Shown here piece after piece: positions 1 to 49,961 of a DNA stretch of 64,000 nucleotides (position 1 is its first letter; each line of letters starts with the position of its first letter). A program made the position numbers and the translations under genes. The stretch comes from a virus: the IMG/VR virus record IMGVR_UViG_3300038336_000025. One strand, written 5' to 3'. Under the pieces are notes generated by a model. It saw nothing but the letters and a program-made list of their open reading frames with translations, ran no database searches and was not told where the DNA came from.

Positions 1-120
1 TATTTAATGCTATTTAATGCTATTTAATGCTATTTAATGCTATTTAATGCTATTTAATGCTATTTAATGCTATTTAATGCTATTTAATGCTATTTAATGC
101 TATTTAATGCTATTTAATGC
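1..120. repeat. Perfect tandem array, 12 x TATTTAATGC (10-bp unit), starting at the window edge
   Basis: Read directly: 1-120 is 12 identical 10-mers; the array may continue upstream of the window. Confidence 0.95.
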
Positions 121-4657: not shown

Positions 4658-5953
4658 ATGGAAACCGTCATGCGTACAAAGCGTGAAAACGAATTCATTG
4701 AAAACCAAATCGAGCAGGATACCCAGTATGCAAACTGGGTAGACTATCGAGAATCACATTTCGGTAACTACAGAGAAGAATTTGGTGATATCTACACTTA
4801 CATGAACAAGAAGCATCCACAGTTCACAGATACACCAAATGCGTTAATGAAGACTTTCCTTGAAAGTAAAAAAGAGGATATCGAGAAGATCAAATCCTCA
4901 ACTACAGGGAAGTCGATGCAGTCTTACATGTCATCGAAGCGGCTCATGTATCTCTATGAAGATGTACTTGAGAAAACGCTGGAAGATTGTAAGAAGAAAG
5001 ACCCTGATTTTAACAACAAGAATCAGGAAGATCAGTTACAGTCTATGAATGAACTTGTAACTAAGTCTCCGCTGAAGGTTAAAATCCGCGTAAACCAGAA
5101 ACTTGAAGAAGTAAAAGACGAAATTGAAGAAGAACTCAATACACTTCAGGTAATTGGTTGTGGTGGCAATGCTGGTAAAGAAGAGAGCATCGACCGTGAA
5201 CGAGCTTTACAATTTCTTCAGATGATGAAGAAAAACTCAATGGTAAAGAAGATCATGGAACAGGCCGGTAAATTCATTAACACAGCGAAACATAAGATTA
5301 TGACTCGCTGCAAAGGTAATGAAGATGTTATCGGTGTAGAACTAGGAGATGATCTTCAGCGCATTTTACCAACTGAGATTGCTCAACTGGCATTACCTGA
5401 GTTTGAATTCTTACAGACTCTTAAATTCGTACAAAAGGAAGTGCCTCAGTATGAAAAAGAGTCTGGTGAGAGTAAAACGATTGGTGATATCGTTGTAGCT
5501 CTTGATGAGTCTGGCAGTATGAAAATAGATGACAACATCGTAAAAGCCAAAGCATTGCTTTTCGGTATCATGGAACAGGCAAAACATGATAACCGAAAGG
5601 TACAGCTGGTTGGTTTCGGTGGTAAAACAGAACACTATCTGATTAAAGATTTAACAATGGAAAAATTGTTAGATGTAATCAGCGTGTTCAAGAACTATGG
5701 TGATACCTGCTTTGAATATCCACTCTCTACAGCGATTGAGATGTGTGGTAAGTACAGCGATGTGATATTTATCACCGATGGTTACGCGCCGATAAGTGAA
5801 CGACTCAAGGCTGATGTAGAAGCTGCAAAGGAAAATCTGAATGTTAAGATAATTACAATGCAGTTTGGTTGTGTGTGTAATGAAGACCTTGAGAAGTTAA
5901 GCTCAAGCTTCAATACAACGTGGTCGCTGTTCACTGACAAGGCACTGAGATGA
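4658..5953 (+). CDS. von Willebrand factor A (vWA) domain protein
   Basis: MIDAS motif VVALDESGSM and downstream FITDG in the C-terminal half; follows the MoxR gene. Confidence 0.75.
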   Translation: METVMRTKRENEFIENQIEQDTQYANWVDYRESHFGNYREEFGDIYTYMNKKHPQFTDTPNALMKTFLESKKEDIEKIKSSTTGKSMQSYMSSKRLMYLYEDVLEKTLEDCKKKDPDFNNKNQEDQLQSMNELVTKSPLKVKIRVNQKLEEVKDEIEEELNTLQVIGCGGNAGKEESIDRERALQFLQMMKKNSMVKKIMEQAGKFINTAKHKIMTRCKGNEDVIGVELGDDLQRILPTEIAQLALPEFEFLQTLKFVQKEVPQYEKESGESKTIGDIVVALDESGSMKIDDNIVKAKALLFGIMEQAKHDNRKVQLVGFGGKTEHYLIKDLTMEKLLDVISVFKNYGDTCFEYPLSTAIEMCGKYSDVIFITDGYAPISERLKADVEAAKENLNVKIITMQFGCVCNEDLEKLSSSFNTTWSLFTDKALR

Positions 5954-12751: not shown

Positions 12752-13049
12752 ATTCCGTTTCCATCCTTTGATCTGCCGTAAGAGGCAAGTATTTTAAACA
12801 CTGTCTCACATACCGCATTAAGTTTTGAGCATTAAAAAGAGTTTGTGTATACAATTCATTATGTCTGAAATACCGCAACAACGCAAGTTTTTGTTTATGA
12901 TTAAGAAGATTGTTATTTTTTATTTTACAAACAATTTCCTTGTGTGTTTCACACTTAGAAATTGAATTTAAAAATCCGGTCATGATAAAGTTACTAATGT
13001 TAACATTATCATCAACACCAACAATCTCTTGTAAGTTTAAATCTTGCAC
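12693..13049 (-). CDS. Hypothetical protein (118 aa); 59-nt overlap with the downstream gene
   Basis: ORF track. Confidence 0.55.
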   Translation of the reverse strand: MQDLNLQEIVGVDDNVNISNFIMTGFLNSISKCETHKEIVCKIKNNNLLNHKQKLALLRYFRHNELYTQTLFNAQNLMRYVRQCLKYLPLTADQRMETEYVFSKIYKDRFKNTRSKCR

Positions 13050-13930
13050 TTATCAAAGTCTTTAATCATATCGCTGATATCATGTTCACAGAGGTATTTA
13101 AACAGCTCAGTTCTATCGAACCTTCTTTGTCCTTGTACCTTCTGTTTAACCAAACCACGTAGAACCATATCAGTCTTAACAACATTTAAATCCATTAGTT
13201 CGCGGTTACGTTTAATAAGATCAGCACTTTCAATAACCCTTGTTTCAATGACAGACGGCTTCTTTTTACCAGCATTTTTGATCTTCAATTCTTCAACAAT
13301 CTGCTCATAGTTACCATATTCAAGAATGTAATCAGTTGCTTTCTTTTCACCAACACCGGCAATATTTGGGATATTGTCTGATGTATCGCCGGTCATGCAC
13401 TTGTAATCAAGGTAATATTTCTGCTTGAACCCAAAGATATTTTCAAAGTTTTCCTTGGTAATAGTCACCTTCTTATTAGGGTTATAAACAGAGATACGAT
13501 CATCAATTAACTGTGGAAAGTCACCATCGGTTGAGATAATTGTAACAAGATGGTTGTTACGAAGCATGAATGACAATAAAGCAATGTAATCATCTGCTTC
13601 GTAACCATCACCATCTAATACATTAAGGCCAGACTTTCTACAGATTTCTATAAAGACGGGAAAAACTTTCTGGAACATTGCGTATTGTTCTGGTGTAAGT
13701 GATGTCTTTCTGTGCCCTTTGTATTCAGGAAACAGATTTAATCTTCTTTCGCTTTTACAAGTATCGAACACCATGATTACTCTCTGGTTTTTAAGAGAGT
13801 TTTGCCGCATAAGCAGCCATGTATTCACAACACCTTTTAAAGACTTTGAGAAGTTTTTAACATCACAGTTTTGCCAGAATGTTCTATGGAAAAAGTTATT
13901 TCCATCAATTATAGAAACGCGTATACTCAT
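13037..13930 (-). CDS. Flap endonuclease / 5'-3' exonuclease (T4 RNase H / T5 D15 type)
   Basis: PIN-like N-terminus (DGNNFFHR, YKGHRK, GYEADD, STDGDFPQL) and H3TH GDTSDNIPNIAGVGEKKA. Confidence 0.9.
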   Translation of the reverse strand: MSIRVSIIDGNNFFHRTFWQNCDVKNFSKSLKGVVNTWLLMRQNSLKNQRVIMVFDTCKSERRLNLFPEYKGHRKTSLTPEQYAMFQKVFPVFIEICRKSGLNVLDGDGYEADDYIALLSFMLRNNHLVTIISTDGDFPQLIDDRISVYNPNKKVTITKENFENIFGFKQKYYLDYKCMTGDTSDNIPNIAGVGEKKATDYILEYGNYEQIVEELKIKNAGKKKPSVIETRVIESADLIKRNRELMDLNVVKTDMVLRGLVKQKVQGQRRFDRTELFKYLCEHDISDMIKDFDKCKI

Positions 13931-21669: not shown

Positions 21670-22032
21670 CTATTTAACTCCATAGATATAATACGAAATA
21701 TAGTTGCTTACATAACCATCAAATAATTTCTGTCTTGTTTCTAAGATGTAGTCTATGCGGTAATACTCGTCAAAAATTTTGATGATTTCGTCAATTATTG
21801 GTTTTTTACGATCTTGAGGTAATGCAGATAATGGTTTGTCTAAATCGTATTTACGTCTTATTTTTAATTTATGCAAATATGGAACCCTTATGTCTGTACC
21901 AGACACTTCACAAACTCGTTCCTGAAAGAATTTAACCGGTATTCTATCCTCCCAAGCAAGATCGTTATTCGGGTCTTCAACAATGATGCCCTGTTTAAGC
22001 AGTTCTTCAACATCTATATTGAGAATATGCAT
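21670..22032 (-). CDS. Hypothetical protein (120 aa)
   Basis: Track TTG start trimmed to ATG 22032 after AAAGGAA. Confidence 0.6.
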   Translation of the reverse strand: MHILNIDVEELLKQGIIVEDPNNDLAWEDRIPVKFFQERVCEVSGTDIRVPYLHKLKIRRKYDLDKPLSALPQDRKKPIIDEIIKIFDEYYRIDYILETRQKLFDGYVSNYISYYIYGVK

Positions 22033-22045
22033 TTGATTTATTCCT

Positions 22046-22264
22046 TTACCCAATATAGCCGTTGAATGTATTAAATTCTTCTTCGCTGATTTCTTGCCAG
22101 CTCAACACAGTGTATGTTTCCATGTTTTTATATGATTCATTACAATCTAACTGCCATTGGAGTGGGTGTCTACCAACTAAAAGAGCCTGTCTGTATGGTT
22201 GTGCGAAGTTTGTTCGACAACCATGTTTTTCACACAAATAAACAACAAAATAATATTTCCTCAT
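22046..22264 (-). CDS. Hypothetical protein (72 aa)
   Basis: ORF track; AAAGGAA SD. Confidence 0.6.
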   Translation of the reverse strand: MRKYYFVVYLCEKHGCRTNFAQPYRQALLVGRHPLQWQLDCNESYKNMETYTVLSWQEISEEEFNTFNGYIG

Positions 22265-22293
22265 TTTATTCCTTTATGTATTTAATTCAAAAC

Positions 22294-22374
22294 ATTGCCA
22301 GATAAGGGAGTCGAACCCTTATGCTTTCGCGCTGAAGCTTAAATTCAGTGTGTATTCCATTTCACCAATCTGGC
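22294..22374 (-). tRNA. tRNA-Leu (anticodon UAA), class II; no encoded CCA
   Basis: Hand-folded: acceptor GCCAGAT/ATCTGGC, anticodon loop TTTAAGC, 11-nt variable region, T-arm AAGGG-TTCGACT-CCCTT, A73 then ATG. Confidence 0.85.
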
Positions 22375-22520
22375 AAGTGGTAAGGCGGCAATTGCTTGCC
22401 GCCTACCGATTATAACATCAACCTTTCAGGGCTGCAATTTCCTTGTCAATATCTTCTACAGACATTGCTTCAAGTGATGCATTCAACAGATTAACCATAA
22501 CATATTTTAAATCGTCTGTC

Positions 22521-22556
22521 AAGAAAAAACATCGTTTAAATCATTTAAACGATGTT
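22521..22556 (-). terminator. Intrinsic terminator-like hairpin downstream of tRNA-Leu(CAA)
   Basis: 13-bp stem AACATCGTTTAAA/TTTAAACGATGTT followed on the minus strand by TTTTCTT. Confidence 0.6.
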
Positions 22557-22584
22557 TAAAGAGAGGATTTTCGGACAAACGAAT

Positions 22585-22666
22585 TAGCAAGGGTGGGACT
22601 TGAACCCACAAGCCTCTCGGCGACTGCTTTTGAAACAGCTACGTCTACCAATTTCGTCACCCTGCC
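22585..22666 (-). tRNA. tRNA-Leu (anticodon CAA), class II; no encoded CCA
   Basis: Acceptor GGCAGGG/CCTTGCT (two G-U pairs), Leu-type D-arm ACGAAATTGGTAGACGT, loop TTCAAAA, long variable arm, T-arm GTGGG-TTCAAGT-CCCAC. Confidence 0.85.
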
Positions 22667-22789
22667 ATAGAAAAGGTACCACCGAACTACCGTCTATTTT
22701 GTAAATGGTTGGATTATGAGTCCAACGTTACAAAATGCGTTAGTGCGAAACGTAACGGTTGACACAAATAGTTCAGTAAAAATGTTCGA

Positions 22790-23077
22790 TTATTTCTTGG
22801 AACTCTTCAAACCATTATCAAAAGACCGTTGATACATCTGTTTGTCGGCCAGAACGATTTGAAAAGCTTCTTCTCTTGTAAAGCCAGAGGCCATCAAGAG
22901 TTCAAACTTTTCTTTCACGTATTCAACAGACTTCTTGATGAATAACTTCCTAAAAGCCGGTTCAATGACAGAACCAAATTCTTCCAACACTTCAACAACT
23001 TCTGAAACGAATGGCAATAGCCTGTCCTTTTCTTCTTTGAGTTCTTTTACAATTGCCGCTACCTGATTAAAATCCAC
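22790..23077 (-). CDS. Hypothetical protein (95 aa); start moved to the GTG after GGAGGT
   Basis: The track ORF (to 23155) would run into tRNA-Gln; GTG 23077 has a strong SD. Confidence 0.55.
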   Translation of the reverse strand: MDFNQVAAIVKELKEEKDRLLPFVSEVVEVLEEFGSVIEPAFRKLFIKKSVEYVKEKFELLMASGFTREEAFQIVLADKQMYQRSFDNGLKSSKK

Positions 23078-23110
23078 GAATATACCTCCGAAATAAATTG
23101 TAAAACACGG

Positions 23111-23182
23111 CAGGGGTACAAGGATTCGAACCCTGATTACATGCGCCAAAGGCATGTGTCCTAGCCATTGGACGATACCCCT
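23111..23182 (-). tRNA. tRNA-Gln (anticodon UUG)
   Basis: Acceptor AGGGGTA/TACCCCT, loop CTTTGGC, T-arm CAGGG-TTCGAAT-CCTTG; G73 followed by CCG. Confidence 0.85.
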
Positions 23183-23316
23183 AGATGGTGTAATGGATGG
23201 CTTAATTCCACTACACCGTAAAACAAGAACGGGTTTGAGTTCACGTATCGTTATTGAGCAAAATATTGATAAAAGATTTCAAACCAATGTAACCGGCACA
23301 GCCAGCGTTACATCAA

Positions 23317-23388
23317 AGCCGAAAATAGGATTTGAACCTAAAACCTATGCATTACAAGTGCATTGCTCTACCGTTGAGCTATTTCGGC
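23317..23388 (-). tRNA. tRNA-Thr (anticodon UGU)
   Basis: Acceptor GCCGAAA/TTTCGGC, D-arm GCTC-AACGGTA-GAGC, loop CTTGTAA; no CCA. Confidence 0.85.
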
Positions 23389-23571
23389 AAAGCCGGGAGA
23401 TTTATCAATTTGCAACCCTATTCAATGAGTGCCAACTGCGATTAAATAGGTTTCTCCCGGCAAATTCGGCATATCGACCCTAATCTATCATCTTGTATAG
23501 TTGGTTTGCAACCCAAAAATACACACCAAACAATTATGATGTTTGTCATGAATAGCCGAGCCGACACACAT

Positions 23572-23646
23572 TGCCAGTGATAGGATTCGAACCTACAAGT
23601 TAGTAGTTCCTAAGACTACCGTGTCTACCATTTGCACCACACTGGC
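23572..23646 (-). tRNA. tRNA with anticodon UAG (Leu CUA/CUG reader), Leu-type D-arm, but only a 6-nt variable region
   Basis: GCCAGTG TG GTG-CAAATGGTAGA-CAC G GTAGT-CTTAGGA-ACTAC TAACTT GTAGG-TTCGAAT-CCTAT CACTGGC A; no CCA. Confidence 0.7.
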
Positions 23647-23743
23647 GATCTTTGGTATAGTCCTGTTCACAACAATGACTAACAGGAGTAAGCATGTCAT
23701 TGTTTTCGTAGCCTACATCAACCAAAGCTGGCTACCTACGCGG

Positions 23744-23828
23744 CGAAAAGTGAAGGATTCGAACCTTCGGTACCTTTCGGTACACAAGTTTAGCAAACTT
23801 GCTGTTTAAACCACTCACACAACTTTTC
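23744..23828 (-). tRNA. tRNA-Ser (anticodon GCU), class II
   Basis: Acceptor GAAAAGT/ACTTTTC, loop TTGCTAA, variable arm GTACC-GAAA-GGTAC, T-arm GAAGG-TTCGAAT-CCTTC; G73 then CCG. Confidence 0.85.
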
Positions 23829-23887
23829 GAAAATGGGTAGGTGAGGCACTACCCGCGAAATACTCTCACATTAACTGCACAATACAA

Positions 23888-23959
23888 AGGGGAATGGTGG
23901 ATTTGAACCATCGACCTAGCGGTTAACAGCCGCTTGCTCTACCACTGAGCTAATTCCCC
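23888..23959 (-). tRNA. tRNA-Asn (anticodon GUU)
   Basis: Acceptor GGGGAAT/ATTCCCC, D-arm GCTC-AGTGGTA-GAGC, loop CTGTTAA; no CCA. Confidence 0.85.
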
Positions 23960-24043
23960 AAACAGTTGTAAATTGGTGGCAATATTAATGACCTTTGCTC
24001 TTACCTCTTGGAACGGTCAAGCAAGCGGCCAATTTACAACTTC

Positions 24044-24412
24044 GGTGGAAGTGACGGGAATTGAACCCGTGTCCGAACAGATTTACATTCATCCATCTAC
24101 ATCGTTATCTTTTTTGTTATCTTTTGGAACACAGGATAAAAAGCTAAAGTTCCAATGTTTCCAGCAACCACAGTAGGCACTCATGTAGGGTCACAGTGAT
24201 AATCTCCCCTAGCCACTAGCTGCTTTTATGTTACACCTAGCCTGAATCGTCGCAGCAACTATTCAGGTAGATGGTTGTAGCGGCTTACGCGGCTACAGCG
24301 TTGTATGATTCTTCGTTGGCGTTTAAAGCCTGACCGACTTTTAACGTAGCCTCTCGGTCAACTACGCGATGCAAGATGAGTTTCAACTGCCCGTCGAAAC
24401 CATTTCACCCCC
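24044..24412 (-). ncRNA. ssrA: tmRNA (SsrA), one-piece; tag reading frame ANEESYNAVAA-stop at 24285-24320
   Basis: 5' GGGGGTGAAATGGTTTCGACGGG, 3' GGACACGGGTTCAATTCCCGTCACTTCCACC; G3-U70 Ala identity pair; GCC AAC GAA GAA TCA TAC AAC GCT GTA GCC GCG TAA. Confidence 0.9.
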
Positions 24413-24557
24413 AGAATTACACATTTGTCTATCAAATTTGTTAAAAAGTGAGAGACAATTGTGTTTGTCCTTCATATATGATTGTCGTTTCAATCCACGT
24501 ACCAAATTATTGATACGACATTTCATCAATGTTATTGTCAAAGATCAAAAGAATCGG

Positions 24558-24630
24558 TTGCTAGGGCAGGATTCGAACCTACGTAATGATGGTTTATGAT
24601 ACCATTGTCTTACCACTTGACGACCTAGCA
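24558..24630 (-). tRNA. tRNA with anticodon CAU (Met, or Ile2 if lysidinylated)
   Basis: Acceptor TGCTAGG/CCTAGCA, loop ATCATAA, T-arm GTAGG-TTCGAAT-CCTGC; A73 followed by CCG. Confidence 0.75.
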
Positions 24631-24642
24631 ATGAAATTCAAC

Positions 24643-25116
24643 TTATAATCGAGAATTGTGTAGTGCATTGTGATGCTTCTGACACAACCATTTTATTTCC
24701 AGAGGTTTATTGTAATCATCATGATGTGCATGTGCAGAACTTTTACCACAAACTTCACAACAACCACGAGCTAATCTACCAGCCCTAATCTCAAGAGCAA
24801 CGATTCGTCTTGCATTTATTTTTTCTGGGTATCTTTCGATTTGTAGTTTTTTATAATGATAATTGTTCTTTGATATCCCGCCGCGCCAGTTTGGGTTTTG
24901 CTCCCCTTTAGATTCTATGTTGTTATTGCGGTTTATAGCCGATTGTGACATAAAACTAAACACGATATCTTTTGGTAGAATCAAACCGAGTCGTTTCATC
25001 TTCATTTTTACGGCATGAGGGCTGCGTTTTAAGTGTTGTGAAATTACCACACTATTCATTTTTAAATAGTTTTCCTTGATAAATTTAATTTCAACATCAC
25101 TCCAACGATTATTCAT
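24643..25116 (-). mobile_element. HNH endonuclease gene abutting the tRNA island
   Basis: CCEVCGKSSAHAHHDDYNKPLEIKWLCQKHHNALH; ends 13 nt from tRNA-CAU. Confidence 0.75.
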
Positions 25117-25201
25117 ACCACAAAAACCCTTATAATTTATTTATATGGATTGTGTTGTCAAAGGACTGACAACACACCCATCAAAAACACCGTGACACTC
25201 T

Positions 25202-25651
25202 TCAAGAAACAGTGTTGTTTGCGCCTTTAAAAGCTGCAATCCTGACCTTAATTTTTTCAACTTCGGCCTTAATGCGCTTTGTAAAGTTCTCAACCTTGCG
25301 AGTCTGTTCACTATGAAGCTGTTTCTGAATACCAATGATGATATTAGCAACATTCTTCGTGAACTTTAGTTTCGCAAGTCTGGTACCTTTCAGTTCTTCA
25401 AATGTATCATCGGGATTGCACTTAGCCATACCGACACACTTTGCCAACTGGAAGCACAAGGTAGCAAGGGTTTTATGACGAACGTTTTTACCGTTCTGAA
25501 CGAGTAATTTGATTGTCTGTGGACAGAACTTTACAATCAACTTATTCTCGTTACGAATCATTTCGTAATTTGTATTTGGGCTGATGGCTCCGAACTGTGA
25601 AAGCAGTTCATTGAGCATCTTGCTTTGTCTTTTTGAAAATTCAACCTTCAT
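25202..25651 (-). CDS. Hypothetical protein (149 aa)
   Basis: ORF track; promoter plus AAAGGA SD upstream. Confidence 0.65.
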   Translation of the reverse strand: MKVEFSKRQSKMLNELLSQFGAISPNTNYEMIRNENKLIVKFCPQTIKLLVQNGKNVRHKTLATLCFQLAKCVGMAKCNPDDTFEELKGTRLAKLKFTKNVANIIIGIQKQLHSEQTRKVENFTKRIKAEVEKIKVRIAAFKGANNTVS

Positions 25652-25680
25652 TTATTTAATCCTTTCGTTTCGATATTTTG

Positions 25681-25710
25681 ATTATATCATTGCTTAACAA
25701 ACTTTGTCAA
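25681..25710 (-). promoter_or_regulatory. Near-consensus sigma70 promoter TTGACA-N18-TATAAT with TG extension
   Basis: Minus strand reads TTGACAAAGTTTGTTAAGCAATGATATAATCAA. Confidence 0.75.
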
Positions 25711-25732
25711 CAAAAATCTTTATCTAATTTTT

Positions 25733-25766
25733 AAAGGCCGGTGAAAATTGCTTCCCACCGGCCTTT
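25733..25766. terminator. Hairpin AAAGGCCGGTG/CACCGGCCTTT downstream of gene 25776-25970
   Basis: 11-bp GC-rich stem flanked by A/T runs on both sides. Confidence 0.55.
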
Positions 25767-25775
25767 AGACGTTAA

Positions 25776-25970
25776 TTAGCCGACAACTTCAACAGACAGT
25801 TTGCGGAAGTCTTTAAACAACTTTGTGAGGTTGTTTGTTGCGCCTCTGGCGCGTCTTGTGGCCATTTTGTTGCCCTTTTCGGCGGCTTTCTTTGAGTCTT
25901 CATTGAAAATGACCAACTCGGCTTCGATTTCTTTCAACAGTGATTCCAGTTTGCTATCCATTGTGTACAC
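25776..25970 (-). CDS. Small basic protein sharing the histone-H1-like helix motif with 13948-14244
   Basis: NKMATRRARGATNNLTKLFKDFRKL. Confidence 0.55.
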   Translation of the reverse strand: MYTMDSKLESLLKEIEAELVIFNEDSKKAAEKGNKMATRRARGATNNLTKLFKDFRKLSVEVVG

Positions 25971-25979
25971 CTTTCGTTA

Positions 25980-27131
25980 TTAGATTGCAATGCTTTCTTC
26001 AAGCAATGATTCCGGTACTTCAACATCATTTGTTTTCAGATAGTTGTTAATTGCATTAACATCTTTCTTCAAATCATCGGTGATTGCAAGAATACCTTTT
26101 TCCTTAAAGTATTCAATGATCTGTGAAAGAAGATGTTTATTCTTCAGATTCTTTGCAATGATGTCTTTGGGTAAAGTTATCATCTTAACTGGTATGGCGA
26201 TGTCATCAAGGCTCAATTCATCATCCCCATCAAGTGATAAGCTTTCAGTATCAAGAGAGATATCATTATCACTGTCAAGTGAGAGATTGTCAAGTGATAA
26301 ATCATCTTCTTTTGGTTTAGCCGTTGTTTTTGGAGCTGTAGATGGCTGAATCTTCGGTGCTGTTTTTGGATCAGCAGTTTTGGTCTTTGATGAAGTGTTT
26401 ACATCATCAAGACTGGTAACTTCATCTTCGTCAAGTTCAGCATCAGATTCTTCTTCTGAGTGAGCTTTTGTAAGGTAGTCATGAAGCTGTTCATAAGTCT
26501 GTGTTTTACCATAGACCTTTTCCAGATCAATCGGGCCACCCTGTTCAAACGTTCTACCCCAGAGGAAGTCGTAGTTTTCCTTGAGTTCATGTGCTCTTGC
26601 ATCATCAGTTGATTCTGTAAGGCTGTATGAAACACGGTCACTACCATCTTTATTCTTGGACATCGTTTTCTTGTAAGACCAGATAATACCATCAATCGGG
26701 TCTTTTTCGATGATTGCAAGGATTTCTTTCAGTCTGGACGCTGTGAACTTAATAGCGATGAATTTCTGTTCTTTGTCATTAAGATCAATGGCATTTACCC
26801 AGTACTTCTCATCAACTATCTTGTTGATAACACCCTGAATTTTTGTCTTTTCGTCTTTGTTGGATGTTTCGCGCCATTCTTTCCATAGTTCCTGAATGAA
26901 GTCGCATACCGGGCACTTCTCGTTAAGTTCCGGGCTTGTATTCATGCACCAGCAGCTTTTTGCGTTGCTCTTAACGATTGGAACCATGTGAAGGTTGAAG
27001 TGTTTTCGTGCATAGAAAAACTGTTCATTTGGAATCCACAGTTTTACAGTTCCTTCATGCTTCAATTCTCGACTGTTGCGAGAACCACCGGACATTTTTG
27101 ATTTTAGTTCTTTTGCTGTAAAGTACCCCAT
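25980..27131 (-). CDS. gp32-like ssDNA-binding protein with acidic LSLD repeats and an extra C-terminal domain
   Basis: Zn-site-like CWC...CPVCDF (compare T4 gp32 CPVCQY); acidic DDLSLDNLSLDSDNDISLD... at aa 275-311. Confidence 0.65.
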   Translation of the reverse strand: MGYFTAKELKSKMSGGSRNSRELKHEGTVKLWIPNEQFFYARKHFNLHMVPIVKSNAKSCWCMNTSPELNEKCPVCDFIQELWKEWRETSNKDEKTKIQGVINKIVDEKYWVNAIDLNDKEQKFIAIKFTASRLKEILAIIEKDPIDGIIWSYKKTMSKNKDGSDRVSYSLTESTDDARAHELKENYDFLWGRTFEQGGPIDLEKVYGKTQTYEQLHDYLTKAHSEEESDAELDEDEVTSLDDVNTSSKTKTADPKTAPKIQPSTAPKTTAKPKEDDLSLDNLSLDSDNDISLDTESLSLDGDDELSLDDIAIPVKMITLPKDIIAKNLKNKHLLSQIIEYFKEKGILAITDDLKKDVNAINNYLKTNDVEVPESLLEESIAI

Positions 27132-27913
27132 TATTCTACCTCCATTGTATTTATGTTAAAGAAATAGTCTTTACCATTTGTAAGAAGCCATGCCATATCC
27201 GACACGTACAACTTAACTCTGTCTTTGGGATTGCTGTCTTTAATGGCTTTAATCATTTCCTTAAAGCCCATTCCAACCATCGTTACCGGGATGTTATCAA
27301 GACTACCGATGAAATCTTTGTCGGCAATCGTTCTGGTAAAGTTTTCACCAGTTGAATTGTTTTCAATGCGGCATTTCATCATACCTTTTGCCGGTGTCAT
27401 CTTGAATGTTTCATAGCTGAACGCTTTGGCATCATCGACAACATCTTGCAAAGTACCAATCGGGAGTTCAACACCGTTTTCATAAACGATTTTGCCACGA
27501 TTATATGTCAGTGCATCTTTGTCGAAGAAGTCAAGAATACCATCAATTGCCTGATAAGATTCTACAATTTCAGCATCAGAGGTTTGAGCCATATTCGAAT
27601 GAATTTTGCCAACGCCTGTACCGTCACTGAGAAGGAATGCATCAACAGATGATTTGATTCTTAACATTTCAGAATCGGTTCTGTTTACTGCGGCAATCAA
27701 TTTCTGAAGATTTGGAACTTTGATGTTCCCTTCTTCTGTAACTTTAACACCGTCACAATAAACTTCTGCGTACATTGTGACCATTTTGTCAGTTACTTTA
27801 GCCATGATTCGGTTATTCGGTGCTGTGTGAATAACAAGATCACGGATAATATTTCCGAGAGCGCAACGCCCTAAGAATTGTTTAAAGTTCGCTGTGTTCA
27901 ACTGGATATCCAT
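27131..27913 (-). CDS. Putative sliding clamp (processivity factor)
   Basis: 260 aa, located between the SSB and helicase genes, gp45-like length and N-terminus; no diagnostic motif. Confidence 0.4.
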   Translation of the reverse strand: MDIQLNTANFKQFLGRCALGNIIRDLVIHTAPNNRIMAKVTDKMVTMYAEVYCDGVKVTEEGNIKVPNLQKLIAAVNRTDSEMLRIKSSVDAFLLSDGTGVGKIHSNMAQTSDAEIVESYQAIDGILDFFDKDALTYNRGKIVYENGVELPIGTLQDVVDDAKAFSYETFKMTPAKGMMKCRIENNSTGENFTRTIADKDFIGSLDNIPVTMVGMGFKEMIKAIKDSNPKDRVKLYVSDMAWLLTNGKDYFFNINTMEVE

Positions 27914-47987: not shown

Positions 47988-48500
47988 ATGGAAACCAAAA
48001 CAGCATTTTCTGTAGATTTGTTGGAATTTGAACGTGGGTGGGGTAGCAAGGTAGACGACACAATCATCTTCTTGGATGCCAACAAAGCTTATAAATACGT
48101 TGAAGAATTTAATGCCAAGAACAATGCAGACAAAGTTCCTGACTGGTATATGACGGCAGAAAAGCCAGTTGATATCAAGCTGGCGACAGAATCTTATGAT
48201 ATCATTGACAAAACTGTTGAAAAATACATGAGTGAACGGGAACTACGCGATCAGTTAATGGCTAAAAACAAGCCAGAAGACACGAAACCAAGACCATTAA
48301 CATGTGCTGGTTGTCTACAAGAATTGAAACCACCACTTAAAGGATTGCCTGATTGGTATGCTTTTAAACTATCCTATACCAACATAGCAAACCCACTCAC
48401 TGATAATGAAGCGTGTATACAACTCATTCCATTATTCACAGGTGATAAATATTTCTGTAATAAGAAGTGTTTAATTGAATGGTTAAATAAACTAAAATAA
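47988..48500 (+). CDS. Hypothetical protein (170 aa) with C-terminal Cys cluster
   Basis: ORF track; AAAGGA SD. Confidence 0.65.
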   Translation: METKTAFSVDLLEFERGWGSKVDDTIIFLDANKAYKYVEEFNAKNNADKVPDWYMTAEKPVDIKLATESYDIIDKTVEKYMSERELRDQLMAKNKPEDTKPRPLTCAGCLQELKPPLKGLPDWYAFKLSYTNIANPLTDNEACIQLIPLFTGDKYFCNKKCLIEWLNKLK

Positions 48501-48512
48501 AGGAACTGAACC

Positions 48513-49961
48513 ATGCTTTCTAAATTAAAAACATTTGCTCAAGACATTAACAAAGAACTTGATGGTATACTCTATCTAGTGGGTGGTTCTGTTCGCGATA
48601 TGATTATGAACATAGCACCAAAGGATTACGATCTTGAACTGTTTAGAGTCTGGCCGAAAGACTTTGTTAAATACCTCGATAAAAAGAAAATCCCATTTAA
48701 GTTTAACAGCGATGCAAAATTCCCTGTTTACCGTGTCTGTATTGTGAATAACCTTCTTGACGATGAAGAATGGGTTGAAGTTGGTTTCCCTCGTGTAGAC
48801 AACAAGACAGGCCCGAAACATTCAGACTTTGAATGTCTTGTAGACCCATTTATGTCGGTTATTGATGCCGCGATGAGAAGGGATTTCACAATCAATGCTG
48901 TTTATTACAACCTTTTAAAAGATGATTACGAGAATCATGGCTTTGTTAGCCATATAACACACAGTAGGGAATTATCCCCTGTTCACATGGAGAAGTTTAA
49001 GGAAGACCCACTTCGTATTATGCGCGGGTTCCAATTTGCTTCTCGTTTTGGGCTATATACGGCTGATACTCTTGAAACCGTTGATGTAGATATGATCAAT
49101 GGATTATCACATGTAGACCCAAGCGGCATCTACGCTGAATTTGTTAAGGGAATTACAAAGGCAAAGAACATCACAAATGCTCTTGAATACCTTTGTTCAA
49201 TAGCATTACGAAATAACGGTTCTGAATTCTTTAAACCTATTACAGAAATGTTTTATTGCTTACAGAACGCCAGACACCATTTCGAAGGTAATGTTTGGGA
49301 ACACACAAAACTCGTTATCAAGAATGCTATTGAACTGGCAGATACCGATGATGAAAAGGTTCTCCTGTTCTTCGCTGCTTTCTTCCATGACATAGGCAAG
49401 ATACCAACATTTAAACTTGATACCGCCGGGAATCCAACTGCTCATGGTCACGATGTAGAAGGTGATGATCTGGTTGAACTTTATGGTAGTCGTTTCGGAT
49501 TACCAAAGAAGATGATTAAACAGATTATCGTTTTGAAACACTGCCACATGATTGGTAATGATGCCAAGAATAAGAAGCTTTATTTAATGGCAGAAGAATT
49601 AGAGAAAGTCGGCCTGAATTTCGATATCCTTTGTAAGCTGATGCTTGCTGATGTTTATGGGTCTGTTAAGGAATATTTCAGAAGCACTGTTAGAAGTCAT
49701 GGCGAAATCTACAATTTCATGGCGAAAATTAAATCTCTTGGAATTGAGCTTAAACCATTGCGAATGTTTGTCAGTGGGGATGATATTCTTTACCACAGTA
49801 ACGGTAAAATCAAAGGTAAGAAACTTGGTGATCTGCTTTATGAAATGAAGATGTTGCAGATTAACAATCGTGTTGCAACACGACAGGAAGCATTTGATTT
49901 TATGAAAAAACGCATCGAAAATATTTTGGAGAAAATAGTTGACAAAGAAACGCCTGAATGA
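48513..49961 (+). CDS. cca: tRNA nucleotidyltransferase (CCA-adding enzyme) with HD domain
   Basis: GGSVRDMIM..DYDLE, RRDFTINAV, HD domain FFHDIGK. Confidence 0.8.
   Translation: MLSKLKTFAQDINKELDGILYLVGGSVRDMIMNIAPKDYDLELFRVWPKDFVKYLDKKKIPFKFNSDAKFPVYRVCIVNNLLDDEEWVEVGFPRVDNKTGPKHSDFECLVDPFMSVIDAAMRRDFTINAVYYNLLKDDYENHGFVSHITHSRELSPVHMEKFKEDPLRIMRGFQFASRFGLYTADTLETVDVDMINGLSHVDPSGIYAEFVKGITKAKNITNALEYLCSIALRNNGSEFFKPITEMFYCLQNARHHFEGNVWEHTKLVIKNAIELADTDDEKVLLFFAAFFHDIGKIPTFKLDTAGNPTAHGHDVEGDDLVELYGSRFGLPKKMIKQIIVLKHCHMIGNDAKNKKLYLMAEELEKVGLNFDILCKLMLADVYGSVKEYFRSTVRSHGEIYNFMAKIKSLGIELKPLRMFVSGDDILYHSNGKIKGKKLGDLLYEMKMLQINNRVATRQEAFDFMKKRIENILEKIVDKETPE

Follow-up and report, generated by a model that had tools for sequence, protein, structure and literature searches.

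Eight tRNA genes, a tmRNA gene and a CCA-adding enzyme homologue in the genome of an uncultured tailed phage

Does a phage whose tRNA genes end without an encoded CCA, and which also carries a tRNA nucleotidyltransferase, possess its own route for the maturation and repair of its tRNAs? The question is raised by a stretch of 64,000 nucleotides (the window) from the virus record IMGVR_UViG_3300038336_000025 of IMG/VR. A preliminary description of the window, made from the letters alone, had placed eight tRNAs and a transfer-messenger RNA (tmRNA) on the minus strand and a class II nucleotidyltransferase with an HD domain at 48513-49961, and had combined them into a self-sufficient system that might also counter host defences. 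Here we show that the RNA genes are called by independent programs and that the enzyme belongs to the tRNA nucleotidyltransferase family. The eight tRNAs, the tmRNA and the class II CCA/HD enzyme most likely represent the kind of translation-support genes that large tailed phages ordinarily carry, and the host would remain responsible for several of the steps.

The RNA genes and the nucleotidyltransferase

RNA genes were called with ARAGORN and with Rfam covariance models at their gathering thresholds (29 bits for tRNA, RF00005; 47 bits for tmRNA, RF00023), and the 3' ends were read both from the sequence and by script. The two programs are concordant on nine RNA genes, all on the minus strand between 22295 and 24630. 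Eight are tRNAs, which score 48.5-72.2 bits in Rfam and are each also an ARAGORN call, and the ninth is a tmRNA. This is exactly the set named in the preliminary description; all nine calls lie above the Rfam cut-offs and the covariance models rejected none of them. No further tRNA or Rfam family was found by either program in the window or in the remaining 60 kb of the phage. The RNA genes, the nucleotidyltransferase gene (cca) and two open reading frames (ORFs) in or next to the array are listed here, with Rfam scores in bits and lengths in nucleotides (nt) or amino acids.

22295-22375, minus strand: tRNA-Leu(UAA), class II with a short 11-nt variable arm, then ATG; 52.8 bits
22584-22667, minus strand: tRNA-Leu(CAA), class II, then ATT; 48.5 bits
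23109-23182, minus strand: tRNA-Gln(UUG), discriminator G, then CCG; 61.4 bits
23317-23388, minus strand: tRNA-Thr(UGU), then TTG; 72.2 bits
23572-23646, minus strand: tRNA with a UAG anticodon, 75 nt, A73, then ATG; 55.3 bits
23742-23828, minus strand: tRNA-Ser(GCU), class II, then CCG; 55.3 bits
23888-23959, minus strand: tRNA-Asn(GUU), then TTG; 70.4 bits
24043-24412, minus strand: one-piece tmRNA, then CCG; RF00023, 156.4 bits, also called by ARAGORN
24556-24630, minus strand: tRNA with a CAU anticodon, elongator Met or Ile2, then CCG; 56.5 bits
48513-49961, plus strand: cca, class II tRNA nucleotidyltransferase with an HD domain, 482 amino acids; assigned from Pfam, phrog_2244, motifs, AlphaFold2 and Foldseek
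22790-23077, minus strand: small ORF within the array, 95 amino acids from a GTG start with GGAGG ahead of it; no Pfam or PHROG match
24643-25116, minus strand: HNH-type endonuclease ORF directly upstream of the array; phrog_2340 endonuclease, 2e-18

The tmRNA covers model positions 1-374 of 374 at 156.4 bits against the cut-off of 47. Its tag, ANEESYNAVAA, is read by ARAGORN in a frame closed by a stop, and its acceptor stem (GGGGGUG/CACUUCC) contains a G3:U70 pair and is followed by a discriminator A. The CAU tRNA is not an initiator, since its 1-72 pair is U-A and its anticodon stem does not have the run of three G-C pairs. The UAG tRNA shares with both neighbouring Leu tRNAs a Leu-type 3-bp D-stem, a AAAUGGUAGA-type D-loop, A73 and G37, and its variable region is only 5 nt long; judged by these features it looks like a tRNA-Leu that has lost its long extra arm. 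Among 23 tRNAs with a Leu anticodon in other phage loci, two have a comparably small size (74 nt in locus L049 and 77 nt in L057).

Scanning for consensus elements gave pattern matches to a 14-bp terminator-like hairpin with a T-run at 22557-22527 on the minus strand and, after it on the same strand, to a promoter-like site, TTGACA-17-TATGGT, at 22522-22494. Leu(UAA) may be transcribed apart from the other eight RNA genes, perhaps as its own transcription unit, because these two elements set it apart. A further TTGACA promoter-like site was matched at 25161.

The cca product is assigned by several lines of evidence, which bear out the class II nucleotidyltransferase with an HD domain first described at this position. 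It matches the PolyA_pol head domain in Pfam (PF01743, residues 20-137, 49.8 bits against a cut-off of 23) and the HD domain (PF01966, 39.9 bits against 22), and residues 20-452 match phrog_2244, 'tRNA nucleotidyltransferase', at 3e-44. When it is aligned with 13 metagenomic relatives of 39-93% identity, catalytic motif A, consisting of GGxVRD (G24 G25 V27 R28 D29) and D38/D40, and motif B, R122-R123-D124 within RRDFT(I/M)N, are invariant, as are the nucleotide-template motif D, EDxxR (E164-D165-x2-R168), and the HD residues H256, H264, H292-D293, H313, H345 and D380. An AlphaFold2 model was obtained with a predicted local distance difference test score (pLDDT) of 90.1 and a predicted template modelling score (pTM) of 0.86. 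Foldseek matched this model at a probability of 1.00 to 9kma, 3wfr, 4x4w, 1miv and 3h37, over 460-540 columns and with query-normalised TM-scores of 0.53-0.66. The proteins that match its fold along the whole length are class II CCA-adding enzymes of solved structure, from Arabidopsis, Geobacillus, Thermotoga and human mitochondria; 3wfr, the tRNA-processing enzyme of Aquifex, is also matched by fold.

The enzyme belongs to a small clade of about 18 proteins, 39-92% identical, which are found only in metagenomes. The family as a whole is widespread in phages. Its homologues among GenBank phages come from 345 records and are usually annotated as tRNA nucleotidyltransferases, with an identity of no more than 31% to each. 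Scanning IMG/VR with the Cca sequence or the phage SSB sequence alone returned no close relative, and an alignment-based scan identified 79 loci with a homologue of the enzyme. Of 50 IMG/VR records with a cca homologue, 18 also have a tmRNA that passes the Rfam cut-off, including 9 of the 25 that are rated at least 90% complete. We also looked for a donor of cca among named genomes and rejected the candidates: the only homologues have an identity of 33% or less and are scattered over many phyla.

3' ends and their proposed completion

The preliminary description had claimed that no RNA gene of the array encodes a full 3' CCA, and direct reading and the script are in agreement with it down to the individual CCG, ATG, ATT and TTG trailers. 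CCA follows the discriminator in 0 of the 9 genes. CCG is found there in Gln, Ser, CAU and the tmRNA, and at the Rfam ends of the remaining five the trailer is ATG in Leu(UAA) and the UAG tRNA, ATT in Leu(CAA) and TTG in Thr and Asn. As CCA is encoded by none, addition of A (four genes) or of CCA (five genes) after transcription is required; read from the sequence, every transcript of the array needs a 3' extension.

Does this absence carry any meaning of its own? The bacterium that was binned with the phage contig, and which may not be its host (see below), encodes CCA in 5 of its 42 tRNA genes and lacks it in 37, while C74 is present in 41 of the 42. The fetched stretches of the 79 IMG/VR loci with a homologue of the phage enzyme contain 300 tRNA genes, of which 75 (25%) encode CCA and 75% do not; 8 of the 14 tmRNA genes in enzyme-carrying loci are likewise without it. 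The same holds for a close relative of the phage, the 7.8-kb metagenome contig L111, whose SSB is 97% identical and which matches the array region in blocks that are 87-96% identical at the nucleotide level: CCA is encoded in none of its nine RNA genes, CCG stands on its CAU, Ser and Gln tRNAs, and its tmRNA has CAG. The missing CCA is the norm and no special signal, because it is common in all three: the co-binned bacterium, other enzyme-carrying phages and L111. Moreover, some phages encode CCA on most of their tRNAs and yet keep the enzyme (10/12 in L088, 7/10 in L096 and 11/20 in L066), so the gene is not a simple companion of CCA-less tRNAs.

With regard to the individual bases, each gene of this phage that has C74-C75 (Gln, Ser, CAU and the tmRNA) has G76 and never A. 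CC-G is shared by the unrelated CAU tRNA of L111, in which the 3' ends at 5897, 7199 and 7776 were considered, and the CC-not-A ends of other phages comprise 5 CCG and 5 CCT. These CC-G ends may reflect drift once A76 is supplied enzymatically. C74 is found in 92% of 314 tRNA and tmRNA genes of other phage loci, whether CCA is encoded or not. Position 74 is A or T in 5 of the 9 RNA genes of this phage, and C74 is missing from 1 of 42 tRNA genes in the co-binned bacterium.

If the genes do form an ordinary translation-support set, as we think likely, their action can be outlined as follows. Most of the array would be read off the minus strand in a single transcript that starts upstream of the HNH gene and stops at the terminator-like hairpin at 22557-22527. 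The transcripts would be trimmed and then extended by the phage enzyme, which would add A to the four that encode CC and CCA to the five others. The enzyme would also rebuild phage and host tRNAs whose 3' ends have been worn or clipped, providing a capacity independent of continued host gene expression, and its HD domain would clear blocking 3' phosphates, as in E. coli Cca. The host would supply RNase P and the 3' nucleases, carry out modification and aminoacylation, and provide the tmRNA with SmpB.

A profile search of the genome covered 110 kb of the phage, beginning after its first 13 kb. SmpB, TilS, peptidyl-tRNA hydrolase and S21 were not found on these 110 kb, and neither was an aminoacyl-tRNA synthetase or other translation factor among the families searched; SmpB (PF01668) occurs only on contig C53 of the co-binned bacterium and not on the searched phage contig, C13. 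Rfam gave no match to RNase P RNA anywhere in the phage. With SmpB, RNase P RNA and the processing and modification genes missing from what was searched, the host must perform trimming at the 3' end, processing at the 5' end, modification, charging and tmRNA delivery. The maturation and repair route first proposed is thus partly upheld: the CCA-less RNAs and the enzyme are real and the enzyme is a sensible provider of the ends, but the system is not self-sufficient, since the other factors are missing. Two further possibilities were tried and rejected. A T4-like kit for the repair of anticodon-nuclease damage is rejected, as RNA ligase, RtcB and the AAA_33 kinase of the polynucleotide kinase (PNK) type were not found on the searched 110 kb of phage contig C13. 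Ribozyme-assisted 3' processing of the HDV-like/theta kind (a lead from PMC10879173) was also discarded, a permissive Rfam scan of 21800-25200 having returned the tRNAs, the tmRNA and sub-threshold noise.

Several observations weigh against an ordinary translation-support set. The phage protein misses every NCBIfam equivalog cut-off (95.4 against 438.8 bits for TIGR02692 and 78.2 against 451 bits for NF008137), so it is assigned at the level of the family only, and its sequence alone cannot tell CCA-adding from A-adding or poly(A) activity. There is no physical link between cca and the RNA array, which are on opposite strands and separated by 24 kb. In IMG/VR the enzyme has its closest relatives on fragments of 4-20 kb that contain no tRNAs. 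Finally, the co-binned bacterium has a CCA enzyme of its own, and the phage copy is then not strictly needed for maturation.

The first of these points leads directly to the alternative that the nucleotidyltransferase is an A-adding enzyme or a poly(A) polymerase acting on other RNAs, rather than a full CCA-adding enzyme. Its best single sequence match in the PDB is indeed the Aquifex A-adding enzyme 3wfo, E. coli poly(A) polymerase also matches, the scores stay under all the NCBIfam equivalog cut-offs, and four of the nine phage RNAs need A alone. However, the five other phage tRNAs need all three nucleotides, and the NCBIfam A-adding model scores 19.7 bits where the CCA models reach 78-95. 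The phage protein retains the loop that separates motifs A and B as well as an intact EDxxR template motif, and its strongest fold matches are full CCA-adding enzymes. The model scores and the A-B loop favour a full CCA-adding activity as predicted from sequence, and we regard the A-adding or poly(A) alternative as very unlikely.

A different alternative accepts the CCA activity and changes its purpose, in that the CCA/HD enzyme would mainly rebuild tRNA 3' tails cut or blocked by host immunity, whether by tail-cutting nucleases such as Cas12a3 or by toxins that modify the 3' end, with the phage tRNAs replacing host tRNAs that are depleted or cleaved. The CRISPR effector Cas12a3, reported in 2026, cleaves the CCA tails of tRNAs, and its authors state that it is not known how viruses escape it (PMC12851939). 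Comparative genomics has led others to propose that phage CCA enzymes act in repair (PMC7824862). In the phage enzyme the catalytic residues of the HD domain are conserved, and the phages noted above that encode CCA on most of their tRNAs (L088, L096 and L066) yet keep the enzyme fit repair better than maturation. Against this, the RNA ligase, RtcB and PNK-type kinase were not found on the searched 110 kb, no host is assigned and hence there is no matching defence system to point to, and a booster of capacity explains the enzyme equally well. We therefore consider a mainly counter-defensive enzyme unlikely. A stronger version would take the enzyme as a dedicated counter to immunity that removes or blocks tails, the unfinished ends including CC-G as a sign of reliance on it, and the short Leu-type tRNA as a variant that evades recognition by a nuclease directed at class II tRNAs; this strikes us as less probable still.

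Turnover of the array and the host of the phage

The array region was compared between strains by aligning window positions 22000-27200 with L111 3681-7804, which are about 95% identical outside the cassettes. The order of the L111 array is Tyr, a different CAU tRNA, the same tmRNA, Asp, a 94-nt Thr-GGU call, Asn, Ser, Thr-UGU and Gln; the HNH ORF, the CAU tRNA of this phage and the UAG tRNA are missing. The block of HNH ORF and CAU tRNA is thus swapped for Tyr and another CAU tRNA in L111, where Asp and the 94-nt Thr-GGU call are inserted after the tmRNA and Thr-UGU has diverged to 87% identity. Strains that are nearly identical thus gain and lose genes at the array in the manner of cassettes, as happens in other clusters of phage tRNA genes. 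When the array and the tmRNA were compared with GenBank phages for near and distant DNA matches, a 33-nt match in the T-arm was all that was returned.

The tRNA-Thr(GGU) of L111 (6777-6870) was called by ARAGORN, and its 94 nt are far above the normal length of a class I tRNA. It may contain an insertion or an intron, or it may be a miscall.

The tRNAs could also have been retained because their codons are more common in the phage than in its host, in which case the CCA enzyme would merely mature them. The codon usage of the phage ORFs was compared with that of the long ORFs of the co-binned bacterium, which may not be the host. ACA, read by Thr-UGU, is clearly enriched in the phage (1.60-fold), and AAC marginally so (1.20-fold). 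However, the other cognate codons are not (TTA 1.06, TTG 0.82, CTA 0.99, CAA 0.83, AGC 0.76, ATG 1.06, ATA 1.09), and the codons with the highest enrichment, TGT (2.95), AAG (2.07), GGT (1.59) and AGA (1.52), have no phage tRNA. The variation in tRNA content between strains that are 95% identical also suggests fast turnover rather than tuned selection. The codon comparison that the preliminary description had called for thus lends weak support to compensation, through ACA, and most cognate codons speak against it; as an explanation for the eight tRNAs we think it improbable.

The genome itself is that of a tailed phage and is complete. Window positions 13257-64000 correspond to contig C13:1-50744 of a 4.2-Mb, 195-contig assembly, and the first 13,256 bases of the window together with C13 make 123,535 bp, with an ORF at 13037-13930 spanning the join. 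Both ends lie within the same perfect 10-bp tandem repeat, (TATTTAATGC)n, seen in window 1-120 and in the last ~110 bases of C13. The assembly broke inside this repeat, and because the same repeat is at both ends the phage genome is closed or terminally redundant and not an integrated element. Pfam and PHROG identify genes for a major head protein, prohead protease, portal, terminase, tail fibre and RIIA, in addition to a DnaB-like helicase, a gp32-like SSB, RusA, HNH endonucleases and an anaerobic ribonucleotide reductase. The RNA array sits in a minus-strand cluster of replication and recombination genes. Around cca, neither the ORF at 47988-48500 upstream nor the downstream ORFs gave an informative match.

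Further along the phage, the large subunit of the anaerobic ribonucleotide reductase (phrog_25611, 7e-101) is encoded at phage 100273-102114 (L193:17118-18959, plus strand) and the RIIA-like protein (phrog_612, 3e-63) at phage 104481-106547 (L194:1426-3492, plus strand). The reductase points to an anaerobic host or habitat.

Is the co-binned bacterium the host? Among phage ORFs of at least 100 amino acids, 41% have a GGAG/GAGG/AGGA core 4-20 nt upstream of the start, against a background of 5%, with a G peak at -11. In the co-binned bacterium a Shine-Dalgarno core precedes 6% of ORFs, against a background of 8.6%, and an A-rich stretch at -14 to -10 is found instead. The bacterium also has its own SmpB and a tmRNA with the tag GETNYALAA; this tag and the A-rich upstream region we take to be the pattern of Bacteroidota. 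No nucleotide or spacer-like match was detected between the phage and the co-binned genome, and no relative of the phage major head protein in 200 other genomes of the bacterium's family. The trailers of the phage RNA genes set them apart from the bacterium as well, since C74 is missing from 5 of 9 of them but from only 1 of 42 in the bacterium. The Shine-Dalgarno mismatch, the lack of a sequence or spacer match and the lack of a related phage in those 200 genomes suggest that the co-binned bacterium may not be the true host and that the phage contig may be mis-binned. As the host is doubtful, comparisons with the co-binned bacterium are provisional, while the phage-to-phage comparisons are unaffected. 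Recent capture of the genes from this bacterium was ruled out: the tRNAs are 65-78% identical, the CCA enzyme of the bacterium has the same architecture as the phage enzyme and is 25% identical to it, and the tmRNA tags differ.

Relation to known phage and bacterial systems

Large phages are already well known to carry tRNAs together with a tmRNA and a CCA-adding enzyme (Al-Shayeb et al. 2020, PMC7162821), and a rationale of repair and counter-defence has been presented for the jumbo phages among them (Iyer et al. 2021, PMC7824862). Our result adds one uncultured phage to a long list with these genes. It would matter more widely only if phage CCA/HD enzymes do undo damage inflicted on tRNA tails by host immunity, a question that the discovery of Cas12a3 has brought up (PMC12851939), and this phage is poorly suited to testing tail repair, with no host assigned and a bin assignment that may be wrong. 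Two by-products are of use for annotation: encoded CCA is rare in such phage tRNA arrays, and its absence should not be read as a signal; and near-identical strains swap tRNA cassettes.

The kits of huge and jumbo phages join tRNAs, a tmRNA and a CCA enzyme in one genome, as is seen here. Those genomes exceed 200 kb, whereas this phage, at 123,535 bp and with eight tRNAs, falls below that threshold. Unlike them, it has no SmpB, aminoacyl-tRNA synthetase, S21 or translation factor among the families searched on 110 kb.

E. coli Cca (NF008137) has the same two-domain layout as the phage enzyme and the motifs GGxVRD, DxD, RRD, EDxxR and HD in common with it, and the stretch between motifs A and B of the phage enzyme presumably resembles the E. 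coli type. The phage enzyme differs in reaching 78.2 bits where the cut-off of that model is 451, and in adding a C-terminal extension of ~90 residues that aligns with the C-terminus of Aquifex 3wfo. With PHROG 2244, whose members include proteins of Erwinia phage phiEa21-4, FelixO1-like Salmonella phages and Acinetobacter phage ABPH49, it shares the family at an identity of no more than 31%.

A parallel in layout is the T4 cluster, which likewise has eight tRNA genes, some of them without CCA, among small ORFs and homing-endonuclease genes. It has long been known that T4 pre-tRNAs need the host tRNA nucleotidyltransferase (PMC11143913). T4 thus uses the enzyme of its host and has no tmRNA, whereas the phage described here brings both an enzyme and a tmRNA of its own.

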